This document shows positions 1 through 1,070 of a DNA stretch of 1,070 nucleotides, in pieces. Made by a program: the position numbers and the translations under genes. This DNA is from Naegleria gruberi (Eukaryota): the NCBI GenBank assembly GCA_000004985.1, contig GG739582.1. One strand, given 5' to 3'. The notes under the pieces were generated by a model. The model was not told the origin of the DNA and made no database searches. It saw only the letters and a list, made by a program, of their open reading frames with translations. The stretch's first letter is position 1, and each line of letters opens with the position of its first letter.

Positions 1-7
1 CCAAGAG

Positions 8-253
8 ATGATTGATAAATATAAAAATACTGTAGAAATTAACCATGAACAAGGAATTTATGAACAAAGAGAGAAGGAATTGAAACGGAAGAGGAAGCAA
101 GAGGAAGTACCTTACGAAGAACCCGAGGAAGAACCTGTAAATAATCAACGTGAAAGACCTCCTACTCGTCGATCCCCTGGAGGACCATTAGTGGCATTAT
201 CTTGGTACCGTAATAAGATGTCTGTAAATACTGTAAATAAAAACATTCAATAG
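8..253 (+). CDS. Hypothetical protein, 81 aa, or the C-terminal fragment of a larger protein, since the frame is open back to position 2 (Q-E-M...). It has a charged KE-rich segment (EKELKRKRKQEEVPYEEPEEEP) followed by a Pro/Arg-rich segment (RERPPTRRSPGGP). Stop codon TAG at 251-253.
   Basis: It is the only ORF in the six-frame track. An 82-codon open frame in AT-rich DNA, where stop codons are frequent, is unlikely by chance. Codon usage is AT-biased and consistent with the surrounding DNA. A terminator-like hairpin plus T10 sits about 45 bp after the stop. No SD/RBS could be assessed because only 7 nt lie upstream. No recognisable family motif. Confidence 0.55.
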   Translation: MIDKYKNTVEINHEQGIYEQREKELKRKRKQEEVPYEEPEEEPVNNQRERPPTRRSPGGPLVALSWYRNKMSVNTVNKNIQ

Positions 254-296
254 GACTCTCTAACAAAAAAAATTGCTTTATTTTTGTTCGCTTAAT

Positions 297-345
297 AAAA
301 CCCTATCAACTCGTCTTAATTGACAAGTGGTAGGGTTTTTTTTTT
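297..345 (+). terminator. Intrinsic (Rho-independent) terminator-like hairpin. The A4 plus stem aaaacccta (297-305) pairs perfectly with tagggtttt (331-339). It extends by a G-U pair and 2-4 more pairs (to 310/327), with a loop of about 14 nt, followed by T10 (336-345). It is symmetric (A4-stem-T10) and could work in either orientation. It is the first element after the ORF stop.
   Basis: Reverse complement of 297-305 equals 331-339 exactly. U10 tract directly 3' of the stem. Located 44 nt after the TAG. The stem has low GC (3 G-C pairs in the core), so predicted stability is modest. Confidence 0.5.
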
Positions 346-420
346 CGAAAATTTTTCAATCCTGACTTGGATATTTTTTCAAGTTCGGGAAAGTATTTTC
401 TTTTTTTTAATATAATAAAA
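301..420. repeat. Repeat unit copy 1 (120 bp, reference copy).
   Basis: ccctatcaactcgtcttaattgacaagtggtaggg-T10-cgaaaatttttcaatcctgacttggatattttttcaagttcgggaaagtattttc-T8-aatataataaaa. Confidence 0.95.
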
Positions 421-465
421 CCCTATCAACTCGTCTTAATTGACAAGTGGTAGGGTTTTTTTTTT
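417..465 (+). terminator. Second copy of the terminator-like hairpin plus T10, identical to the first (in repeat copy 2).
   Basis: Same sequence as 297-345, shifted by 120 bp. Confidence 0.4.
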
Positions 466-540
466 CGAAAATTTTTCAATCCTGACTTGGATATTTTTTC
501 AAGTTCGGGAAAGTATTTTCTTTTTTTTAATATAATAAAA
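421..540. repeat. Repeat unit copy 2 (120 bp, 100% identical to copy 1).
   Basis: Base-by-base identity with 301-420. Confidence 0.95.
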
Positions 541-584
541 CCCTATCAACTCGTCTTAATTGACAAGTGGTAGGTTTTTTTTTT
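537..584 (+). terminator. Third copy of the terminator-like hairpin. The right arm has lost one G (ccc opposite gg), so the stem is weaker. T10 is retained.
   Basis: Copy 3 variant, read directly. Confidence 0.3.
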
Positions 585-659
585 CGAAAATTTTTCAATC
601 CTGACTTGGATATTTTTTCAAGTTCGGGAAAGTATTTTCTTTTTTTTAATATAATAAAA
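541..659. repeat. Repeat unit copy 3 (119 bp). It has a single G deletion in the GGG of the hairpin right arm (tagg instead of taggg).
   Basis: Alignment to copy 1. Every other position is identical. Confidence 0.93.
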
Positions 660-703
660 CCCTATCAACTCGTCTTAATTGACAAGTGGTAGGGTTTTTT
701 TTT
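656..703 (+). terminator. Fourth copy of the terminator-like hairpin. The stem is intact and the T-tract is T9.
   Basis: Copy 4, read directly. Confidence 0.35.
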
Positions 704-777
704 CGAAAATTTTTCAATCCTGACTTGGATATTTTTTCATAATTGGGGGGATATTTTTCTTTTTTAATATAATAAAA
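660..777. repeat. Repeat unit copy 4 (118 bp). The T-tract is T9 instead of T10, and the 3' third is diverged: caagttcgggaaagtattttc becomes cataattggggggatatttttc, and T8 becomes T6.
   Basis: Alignment to copy 1. The first ~80 bp are near-identical and the last ~40 bp are diverged, with a G6 homopolymer. Confidence 0.9.
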
Positions 778-822
778 CCCTATTAATATACTTTAATTGA
801 CAAGTTGTAGGGGTTTTTATCC
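778..822. repeat. Repeat unit copy 5, degenerate and truncated (~45 bp, roughly 85% identity to the unit 5' end). This is the array's 3' boundary.
   Basis: ccctatTaaTaTaCtTtaattgacaagtTgtagggGttttt aligned to ccctatcaactcgtcttaattgacaagtggtagggttttt. The TTGACA motif is retained and the T-tract is reduced to T5. Confidence 0.8.
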
Positions 823-824
823 CG

Positions 825-844
825 ATTCGAAGGGATTCGAAGGG
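825..844. repeat. Perfect 10-bp tandem duplication, attcgaaggg x2, embedded in gggattcgaagggattcgaaggga. Each copy carries the palindromic hexamer TTCGAA. It lies immediately at the 3' edge of the 120-bp array.
   Basis: Direct reading of 821-848: cccgattcgaagggattcgaagggaaag. Confidence 0.85.
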
Positions 845-1070
845 AAAGCCCACAAATAATGTCGGATGAAATAATCGGTCTGTAAACAGTATTTTAAATT
901 ACTCCGAAACCCCGTATTTCCCAAAAATGCATTTACTTCCTACTTGCTCCGTTTGGACTACCTCCCGAACGTTTGGCATCAAACAATGTTTATTATAGTG
1001 GATTATTTGGTCCGACAATTTGCAGTGCACCTTCGAGTTATTTAAATAATGATTTTTTCATATGACACAA

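Follow-up and report, generated by a model that had tools for sequence, protein, structure and literature searches.

The tandem array in the spacer of the Naegleria gruberi ribosomal DNA circle carries a conserved hairpin-T10 module and may act as a reiterated transcription terminator

What is a near-perfect array of 120-bp repeats doing directly behind an open reading frame (ORF) in Naegleria gruberi, and does any part of its unit matter to the molecule that carries it? The stretch of DNA analyzed here (1,070 nt of contig GG739582.1, assembly GCA_000004985.1; hereafter the window) was originally predicted, from its letters alone, to hold an array that decays progressively from 5' to 3', possibly an undescribed intergenic repeat family dispersed elsewhere in the genome and comparable to bacterial or plastid elements.

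The window almost certainly comes from the closed circular extrachromosomal rDNA element (CERE) of N. gruberi, where it forms part of the non-ribosomal spacer (NRS), because the 83 aa of its ORF tail perfectly match the C-terminus of the CERE spacer ORF product of N. gruberi (P0002, AUH25140.1) and because near-identical contigs carry the eukaryotic 18S-5.8S-28S genes. The window itself contains no rRNA genes, and the linkage is made through these contigs: positions 1-322 are 100% identical to contig L005, which encodes the whole of AUH25140.1, and contig L007, 97-98% identical to the window, carries SSU (3581-5600), 5.8S, LSU (5926-9381), the ORF (9977-11011), and the array (11051-11452) in that order. 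Gene order is unchanged in the sister-lineage loci L001 and L003; L001 contains in addition a GIR1 ribozyme intron, L003 is a 13,926-bp contig that represents a complete circle, and a further contig, L002, repeats with a 13,799-bp period. The array starts ∼1.7 kb 3' of the 28S gene and 40 nt past the ORF stop codon on the rRNA sense strand, with its hairpin and T10 tract 1.67-1.69 kb beyond the 28S end on that strand. According to the literature, the N. gruberi CERE is ∼14 kb long and present at ∼4000 copies per cell. Its spacer is described as repeat-rich (seven repeat families of 34-371 bp), with an endonuclease-like ORF following the 28S gene and, on the opposite strand from the rDNA, two matches to the ARS consensus (PMC5805870); the layout seen here agrees on all three points.

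The sequence of the array is already known, as it belongs to the published N. gruberi CERE, and the array is an ordinary rDNA-spacer minisatellite. The published CERE descriptions consulted neither dissect the 120-bp array nor give it a function; what we add are its A, B, and C unit types, an invariant hairpin-T10 module, and an environmental copy-number series. The CERE of strain NEG-M (AB298288) is 14,128 bp long and that of strain EGB (MG699123) 14,007 bp (PMC5805870), a 121-bp gap that we infer may correspond to about one repeat unit.

The ORF that precedes the array (2-253, plus strand) had been taken for a complete 81-residue gene. Its frame is instead open from base 2 past the left edge of the window, and the segment comprises the last 83 codons and TAG stop of a free-standing, 344-aa His-Cys-box (His-Me finger) homing-endonuclease-like protein. 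A protein search and exact look-ups with the 83-aa tail alone gave no match, and homologs were reached only with the full-length L001 ORF; the full-length homologs match Pfam PF05551 with an E value of 1e-26, and the ORF core has a dN/dS of 0.35-0.40. On the other side of the array lie a micro-duplication of 2.2 copies of GATTCGAAGG (824-845, plus strand), present only in the N. gruberi lineage, and copy A of a direct repeat, 245-274 bp long and dispersed in the spacer (860-1070, plus strand), whose copy B is found ∼1.9 kb further downstream. Kinship between the 119-bp unit and a neighboring 101-bp array was considered and rejected (alignment score of 24 versus a shuffle mean of 21.7). A profile search for more distant CERE relatives added one short contig only, and protein-guided scans of viral and prokaryotic collections for such relatives returned no match.

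Tandem Repeats Finder reports the array at 293-818 with a period of 119, 4.4 copies, 95% matches, and a score of 922, which confirms the predicted array (293-822). The 40-nt spacer between the stop codon and the array (254-293) contains A8 and is T-rich thereafter. Units start at 294, 414, 534, 653, and 771, with lengths of 120, 120, 119, and 118 nt and a final stub, all on the plus strand. Unit A1 (294-413) consists of AATAAA, a hairpin (297-339), T10 (336-345), a second hairpin (347-400), and T8 (401-408); unit A2 (414-533; hairpin 417-459, T10 456-465) is 100% identical to it, and unit A3 (534-652) has one G fewer in the hairpin 3' arm (TAGGG to TAGG). Unit B (653-770), the penultimate or edge unit, keeps the hairpin module but has T9 rather than T10 and a distinct tail (CATAATTGGGGGGATATTTTTC...; CATAATTGGGGGGATATTTTTCTTTTTT). 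The terminal stub, unit C (771-818), retains only the AATAAA and hairpin part, some 50 nt, with the outer stem and TTTAATTGACA preserved but no inner stem. It agrees with copy 1 at 40 of 52 ungapped positions (77%, against a predicted ∼85%), and its fold is no better than that of shuffled sequences (z −0.45).

The predicted features of the unit are all present. It is non-coding, with ATG on neither strand and stops in six of six frames, and it contains two hairpins with predicted RNA folds of −20.5 kcal/mol (297-339; z −4.7) and −17 kcal/mol (347-400; z −4.1), together with T10, T5, T6, and T8 tracts, every one on the plus strand. The A4, 17-pair stem, and T10 at 297-345 (and again at 417-465, 537-584, and 656-703, plus strand) have the shape of an intrinsic terminator and form a candidate functional core. 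Perfect TTGACA hexamers occur at 320, 440, 560, 679, and 797 and perfect TATAAT hexamers at 411, 531, 650, and 768; a promoter reading of them did not hold up, as TTGACA lies 85 nt from the next TATAAT versus the 16-18 nt of a sigma-70 promoter, and the 6 sites returned by a promoter scanner (4.3 ± 2.0 expected) make no use of them. Matches to Rfam stayed below the gathering threshold for every family, the best being SpF36, a terminator-type sRNA hairpin of Gram-positive bacteria (32.5 versus 48 bits), and no tRNA or tmRNA was found in the window.

Some further resemblances were noted by eye. The TAGGGTTT arm looks like Myb or telobox sites; enrichment of the telobox-like AACCCTA was examined and set aside, since its 8 matches (2.7 expected) come from only three independent places. 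TTAATTGACA is confined to the array. AGTGGTAG resembles a tRNA A box, and T10 follows ∼10 nt further on, so that no sensible Pol III product would result. We also considered whether the 40-nt pre-array spacer is a degenerate partial unit. In the N. gruberi lineage it resembles the unit tail no more than chance allows (228 of 500 shuffles reach the same score), and the sister lineage is likewise at chance level; in L006, from a third lineage, an evident unit tail and then AATAAA stand at the equivalent position (a score reached by 0 of 500 shuffles).

The units were compared across five related assemblies from different sources, the window included. A-type units are amplified and identical within an array, and B and C are single edge copies. 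The number of identical A units is three in the window, two in L007, one in L004, four in L001, and one in L003, counts that are soft because short-read assemblies can collapse identical units, so that those of one may reflect collapse. The predicted variability between relatives is thus borne out, and it falls wholly within the ORF-proximal A units. Unit B is orthologous to the penultimate unit in four of four related arrays, and both B and C are shared with the sister lineage, which is ∼10% diverged. An alignment of all units reveals lineage-specific substitutions common to every A copy of an array, and in L007 every non-terminal copy (A and B) carries one G-to-A change. The comparison shows unequal exchange or gene conversion at work in the array, with interior A units amplified and kept identical, in agreement with the recent expansion or homogenization that had been proposed, and B and C remaining single and drifting. 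The progressive distal decay is not supported: because B and C are discrete, old edge units common to two lineages, the apparent gradient is an edge effect of concerted evolution. Nor did a dispersed family find support: in the complete 13.9-kb circle L003 and in every other fetched locus the unit occurs only in the one array, bacterial, archaeal, viral, and metagenome collections yielded no copy beyond such circles, and its sequence lies within the published CERE.

Constraint is distributed unevenly along the unit. Between the A units of two lineages, the first 52 nt (AATAAA, the 17-pair hairpin, and T10) show no differences (0/52), whereas the rest of the unit shows 12 in 69 (Fisher p = 0.0011). 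Support for the hairpin comes from thermodynamics and from conservation in these two lineages; we saw no two-sided, compensatory changes, only one-sided ones such as U.G to U-A in L007. Unit C differs between lineages at 9 of 52 positions and lacks the inner stem, and therefore at least one copy is dispensable. The array follows the ORF stop directly in three lineages, among which the dS of the ORF reaches 0.65. Between the 28S end and the far end of the window region, every T-run of at least 7 nt is a sense-strand one, and the most stable hairpin-adjacent ones are two just past the 28S gene and those of the array. Hairpin-plus-T-run elements thus occur at about +150 and +190 past the 28S gene and then in the array at +1.7 kb; the first pair falls within ∼290 nt behind the 28S gene that hardly vary among three lineages. 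Just beyond the window, T-run polarity switches strand, and the AT-richest 500 nt are found there also.

Our best guess, which we hold tentatively, is that the array could provide reiterated sense-strand transcription stop or 3'-end signals, since the constrained 52 nt, the position after the ORF stop in three lineages, the sense-strand T-runs, and a Leishmania analog all point that way. The constrained part of the unit (AATAAA, the 17-pair hairpin, and T10) would be a stop or 3'-end-formation signal repeated in a row. Such an array may end transcription of the upstream endonuclease-like ORF and may halt, as a back-up, any RNA polymerase I that has passed the putative primary hairpin-plus-T-run elements ∼150-200 nt past the 28S gene. 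Transcription would thereby be kept out of the remaining spacer, home of the single replication origin. According to the literature, it is unknown how CERE transcription terminates and avoids collision with replication (PMC13398248), and the hairpin-T10 module and the matching post-28S elements supply concrete sequences for testing termination. We also speculated on a stronger version, which we regard as doubtful, in which selection maintains the module because it stops a eukaryotic nuclear polymerase in a rho-independent-like way, with no factor required; the array would terminate a free-standing His-Cys-box endonuclease gene that is still functional and carried on the rDNA circle, serve as a fail-safe Pol I stop, and shield the origin, and the copy number would tune the insulation.

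An alternative that we consider somewhat unlikely is that the array is neutral spacer DNA with no sequence-specific role, expanded, contracted, and homogenized by unequal recombination among the thousands of circles in a cell. The number of A units ranges from one to four with nothing else changing, the C copy decays, the hairpin is without covariation, and no Rfam family rises above threshold, all as a neutral minisatellite would have it. The literature moreover calls the Naegleria spacer repeat-laden and poorly conserved between species, which fits weak or no constraint on most of it. Neutrality does not readily explain how 52 nt stay invariant against 12 differences in the other 69 within one homogenized unit, how three lineages have preserved a location right behind the ORF stop, or how the strict sense-strand polarity of the T-runs is maintained.

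That the array is instead a replication element appears unlikely to us. AT-rich repeats with dyad symmetry and dA:dT tracts could form part of an origin, as an unwinding element or initiator sites, or a polar fork barrier at the rDNA 3' end, and yeast, mouse, and pea have tandem fork-barrier sites behind their rRNA genes, the position that this array occupies too. The array has a GC content of 27% and one inverted repeat per unit, the strand switch of the T-runs and the AT-richest 500 nt lie just beyond the window, and the literature maps a single origin, with theta-type replication, to a 2.1-kb fragment of the N. gruberi spacer. Against this reading, the prior that such a fragment of the 8.15-kb spacer covers the array is only ∼0.3, by length alone, and the ARS consensus WTTTAYRTTTW is absent from the unit and the array. 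The two ARS matches in this lineage, one in the ORF and one in a different array, are no more frequent than chance predicts and have no counterpart in the sister lineage, and the sole match in the window (16-26, minus strand) is the one within the ORF, again at chance frequency. The array is also not the AT-richest part of the spacer, and tight coupling to the ORF stop is not expected of an origin.

A false expansion of the repeat during assembly is very improbable. Identical 120-bp tandem units are hard to assemble, and published CERE work needed long reads or PCR to establish repeat numbers, but the array with its A/B/C order is present in five independent assemblies from different sources, and A3 and B each carry small differences of their own, so the existence of the array is not in doubt. 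A bacterial or plastid intergenic repeat with promoter and intrinsic-terminator modules, as the perfect hexamers, the hairpin followed by a T-run, and the best, subthreshold Rfam match had suggested, is already refuted by linkage to eukaryotic 18S/5.8S/28S genes, by the Naegleria protein that the ORF encodes, by the 85-nt hexamer distance with promoter-like sites at chance, and by the lack of any match in 185,579 bacterial and archaeal genomes and in plasmid, phage, and viral (IMG/VR) collections (blastn against phages and plasmids; pattern scans of the prokaryotic genomes and IMG/VR), the sole metagenome match to the unit pattern being another CERE.

In practical terms, the label of the window can change from an unknown bacterial or plastid repeat to N. 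gruberi CERE spacer. Amoebae of the N. gruberi group could be typed with the repeat, which is likely to be a length-variable marker. The array is also a place where short-read assemblies collapse or break, and two Logan contigs end exactly within it.

Among known systems, the closest are the NRS repeats of the N. gruberi CERE itself (MG699123 and AB298288), which represent the same molecule and locus, with an identical ORF protein and the published order of 28S, endonuclease-like ORF, and repeats. For N. fowleri, the literature reports a 168-bp tandem repeat right behind the 28S gene, with strains differing by a 167-nt copy, and for N. australiensis heterogeneity of repeat number within one culture; copy number in these CEREs varies between strains or within cultures. 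Going by its published description, the 168-bp repeat of the N. fowleri LEE lies before its ORF, whereas the N. gruberi array lies after it.

The array is also comparable to reiterated Pol I terminator and fork-barrier sites in other eukaryotes, namely the mouse Sal-box sites T1-T10 bound by TTF-I, the yeast Reb1/Nsi1 and Fob1 sites, and the 27-bp repeats of pea. These are likewise short tandem elements immediately 3' of the rRNA unit that undergo concerted evolution. They act through a Myb-like protein bound at a defined box, and for the Naegleria array no such box or factor is known. With bacterial intrinsic terminators the module shares its shape (A-tract, stable stem, and T-run); here, however, the host is eukaryotic, and because the stem has internal mismatches and a long loop, a consensus terminator scanner does not call it.

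A functional parallel comes from Leishmania, whose Pol I terminates at stem-loops resembling bacterial rho-independent terminators, the main one at +185 and the back-up one at +576, within a stretch that contains repeated elements (PMC6562600). The Leishmania T1/T2 sites, like the array, belong to a discoban host and lie beyond the rRNA unit, each a stem-loop with a sense-strand T-run after it. A main site at ∼185 nt with a back-up further on compares with Naegleria elements at about +150 and +190 and an array at +1.7 kb. The two systems differ in that the CCCTTTT motif required for termination in Leishmania is absent from both strands of the window, that an ORF lies between the first Naegleria elements and the array, and that for Naegleria the role in termination is a proposed one. 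If the stronger, factor-independent version is true, heteroloboseans would join kinetoplastids in using intrinsic-type Pol I termination.

The window belongs to the spacer of the extrachromosomal rDNA circle (CERE) of Naegleria gruberi. Searches of phages, plasmids, 185,579 genomes of bacteria and archaea and IMG/VR gave no match to it, and the 83-aa ORF tail by itself found no homologs in a protein search. A degenerate hairpin pattern led to one metagenome contig (L001, VFQN01005947.1, 14.4 kb), which aligns with the whole window at 89 to 90% identity and holds 5.4 unit copies. Its SSU, 5.8S and LSU rRNA genes are eukaryotic and it also has a GIR1 branching ribozyme, a combination that is the signature of Naegleria-type rDNA. 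In this contig the array is preceded by an ORF of 355 aa that matches Pfam PF05551 (His-Me/His-Cys-box homing endonuclease family, E 1e-26), and a search with this ORF identified P0002 (AUH25140.1, "hypothetical protein [Naegleria gruberi]"), whose C-terminus is identical to the ORF tail of the window. The frame extends past the window's left edge, and the 81-aa ORF taken for a complete gene is a C-terminal fragment. Further loci were collected as contigs encoding this protein family: L005 (encoding P0002, 100% identical over window 1-322), L004 (ORF and array, 97-99% identical) and L007 (97-98% identical, with SSU, 5.8S, LSU at 5926-9381, ORF at 9977-11011 and array at 11051-11452); L002 and L003, from the same sister lineage as L001 (L003 is 13,926 bp with unchanged gene order); and L006, from a third lineage (ORF protein 58% identical), which stops 43 nt past the stop codon. 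The published N. gruberi EGB circle is 14,007 bp and has an endonuclease-like ORF 3′ of its 28S gene, an 8,152-bp spacer containing seven repeat families of 34-371 bp, and two ARS consensus matches, both on the strand complementary to the rDNA (PMC5805870); two such matches were recovered in L004. The assignment follows from the agreement of gene content, ORF identity and these loci with that circle. The window begins ∼1.4 kb past the 28S gene and the array ∼1.67-1.69 kb past its end.

Tandem Repeats Finder reports a single array at 293-818 (period 119, 4.4 copies, 95% matches, score 922), bearing out the array described in the original prediction, the interpretation of which is partly supported. 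Anchoring on AATAAAACCCTAT sets unit starts at 294, 414, 534, 653, and 771 (+ strand). The first two units are 120 nt long and identical, one G is missing from unit 3, and the last third of unit 4 diverges, all as described; unit 4 also has T9 in place of T10. Unit 5 is indeed truncated, with ∼50 nt left, but the ∼85% identity ascribed to it does not hold, 40 of 52 ungapped positions agreeing with unit 1. The unit is noncoding, as claimed, with no ATG on either strand and stops in every frame. Its T10, T5, T6, and T8 tracts all lie on the + strand, and both hairpins are present (hairpin 1, 297-339, −20.5 kcal/mol, z −4.7; hairpin 2, 347-400, −17 kcal/mol, z −4.1). The perfect TTGACA and TATAAT hexamers are also there; however, they lie 85 nt apart, and the window has six promoter-like sites, a number in line with chance (4.3 ± 2.0 expected), which argues against reading them as a promoter. 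The unit belongs to no Rfam family and occurs nowhere else in the rDNA circle, so that it is not dispersed there. At window 824-845, the N. gruberi lineage has 2.2 tandem copies of GATTCGAAGG, where the sister lineage has one diverged copy.

Alignment of all units from five assemblies (window, L007, L004, L001, and L003) resolves three types. Units of type A lie toward the ORF and differ little or not at all inside each array; type B is a lone second-to-last unit whose tail, CATAATTTGGG..., is distinct; and type C is one terminal stub retaining the hairpin part alone. B and C are orthologous between the N. gruberi lineage and its sister (∼10% diverged), and only the number of A units varies: three in the window, two in L007, four in L001 and one each in L004 and L003, the counts of one being soft since short-read assemblers readily collapse identical 120-bp units. 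Copy number is variable, as anticipated. Two Logan contigs, L005 and L006, both break exactly where the array begins. The two published N. gruberi circles differ in length by 121 bp, which may correspond to about one unit. Every A copy of an array carries the substitutions specific to its lineage, and a G-to-A change in L007 is in all non-terminal (A and B) copies. These shared substitutions agree with the predicted homogenization and point to concerted evolution through unequal exchange or gene conversion. Progressive 5′-to-3′ decay is not upheld: B and C are old orthologous edge copies that escape homogenization, and the apparent gradient is an edge effect. In L006 (ORF dS 0.5-0.65), the 37 nt past the stop codon hold a clear unit tail, then AATAAA (score 18, reached by 0 of 500 shuffles), which places the array at the same site in the third lineage.

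Conservation within the A unit is uneven. Its first 52 nt (AATAAA, hairpin, and T10) show no differences between two lineages, and the remaining 69 aligned columns show 12 (Fisher p = 0.0011); both parts are homogenized together and therefore provide a fair internal control. In the non-homogenized C copy the module differs at 9 of 52 positions and folds no better than shuffles, and hairpin 2 is kept only in part in the sister lineage. Changes in hairpin 1 are one-sided, with no compensatory pairs, so its structural support comes from fold energy and conservation.

The ORF upstream of the array (window 2-253; L004 361-1395; L003 7861-8916; L006 986-2029) is a free-standing His-Cys-box (PF05551) endonuclease-like gene, intact in three lineages. 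A 2018 announcement called it a "likely pseudogene". Its aligned domain (columns 45-250) retains all Cys and His residues, with dN/dS of 0.35-0.40 at dS up to 0.68, and from these sequence comparisons it looks like a working gene. In its acidic tail an in-frame 12-bp repeat, GAGGAAGAACCC, encodes EEPE and varies in copy number (window 101-135; L001 6459-6505); P0006 (355 aa) and P0001 (351 aa) are 99% identical apart from this number. Immediately upstream of the ORF start lie 13-nt TTGAACTTGTTGA-type and 27-nt CATGTATGAATTCGTTTCCCTTCCTTT short tandem repeats (L007 9940-9976; L001 7410-7472; L007 9715-9770), which may be promoter or leader elements.

The complete circle L003 was scanned for T-runs of ≥7 nt, folding the preceding 55 nt. 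Between the 28S end and the point matching the right end of the window, all such runs are on the rRNA sense strand, and beyond that point they are mostly on the other. The most stable hairpin-adjacent sense-strand runs are two at 148 and 192 nt past the 28S end and those of the array units. The ∼290 nt directly past the 28S gene hardly vary among three lineages (2 differences in 294 columns; L007 9381-9670, L003 7263-7555, L006 368-655). Conservation ends abruptly thereafter, and the hairpin-plus-T-run elements at ∼+150 and ∼+190 within this block may represent the primary Pol I terminator or a 3′-ETS processing site. The strand switch occurs within ∼70 nt just past the right end of the window (L003 ∼9480-9560), where AT content over 500 nt is also the highest in the circle (GC 0.264, L001 5001-5500), and could mark a convergent termination zone or an origin.

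Other features of the circles were also seen. A 1.9-kb piece of the spacer, with a separate 101-bp tandem array inside it, lies between the two copies of a 245-274-bp direct repeat (window 860-1070; L004 1763-2006 and 3680-3924; L003 9284-9556 and 11204-11475), which are 95-98% identical to each other in any one lineage. L007 (11,673 bp) self-closes through this repeat, indicating assembly collapse or a deletion variant. The L001 SSU contains a twin-ribozyme group I intron with GIR1 and a 254-aa His-Cys-box endonuclease ORF (13315-14242), and the L003 SSU (1463-3482) has none, although their spacer ORFs are 99% identical; near-identical circles thus differ in intron presence.

We tentatively propose that the array is where the ORF transcript is terminated or has its 3′ end formed, and that it also acts as a fail-safe Pol I stop. 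The +150 and +190 elements would be the primary stop; the array, directly after the ORF stop codon and with AATAAA starting each unit, would end the ORF transcript, halt transcription reading through and shield the remaining spacer with its single origin, which has been mapped in N. gruberi to a 2.1-kb fragment. A neutral minisatellite, somewhat less probable, would account for the variable copy number, the decayed C copy, the missing covariation and the poorly conserved spacer; the invariant module speaks against it. A role in replication, as origin or fork barrier, is less likely again, as the unit has no ARS consensus and the spacer is richer in AT elsewhere than in the array. An assembly artefact is very improbable given the array's presence in five independent assemblies, and a bacterial promoter or terminator module is excluded by the rDNA linkage.

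The array lies within a sequence already published in 2007 and 2018 and there called repeat-rich. Added here are the identity of the window, the A/B/C architecture, the environmental copy-number series, the invariant hairpin-T10 module and the matching elements past the 28S gene. By the field's own account, neither the way CERE transcription ends nor the way it keeps clear of replication is known (PMC13398248), and these additions are useful leads on both. The proposed arrangement is drawn by analogy with Leishmania, where Pol I stops at stem-loops resembling the rho-independent terminators of bacteria, and where a main terminator at +185 is backed up by another at +576, within a stretch that contains repeated elements (PMC6562600); the CCCTTTT motif of that system is absent from both strands of the window, and the array is not assigned to that type. 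The array is a kind of rDNA-spacer tandem repeat that evolves in concert, with parallels within the genus: in N. fowleri a 168-bp tandem repeat lies shortly past the 28S gene and another strain shows an insertion of 167 nt, and in N. australiensis a repeat number that differed between sequencing platforms was settled by PCR.
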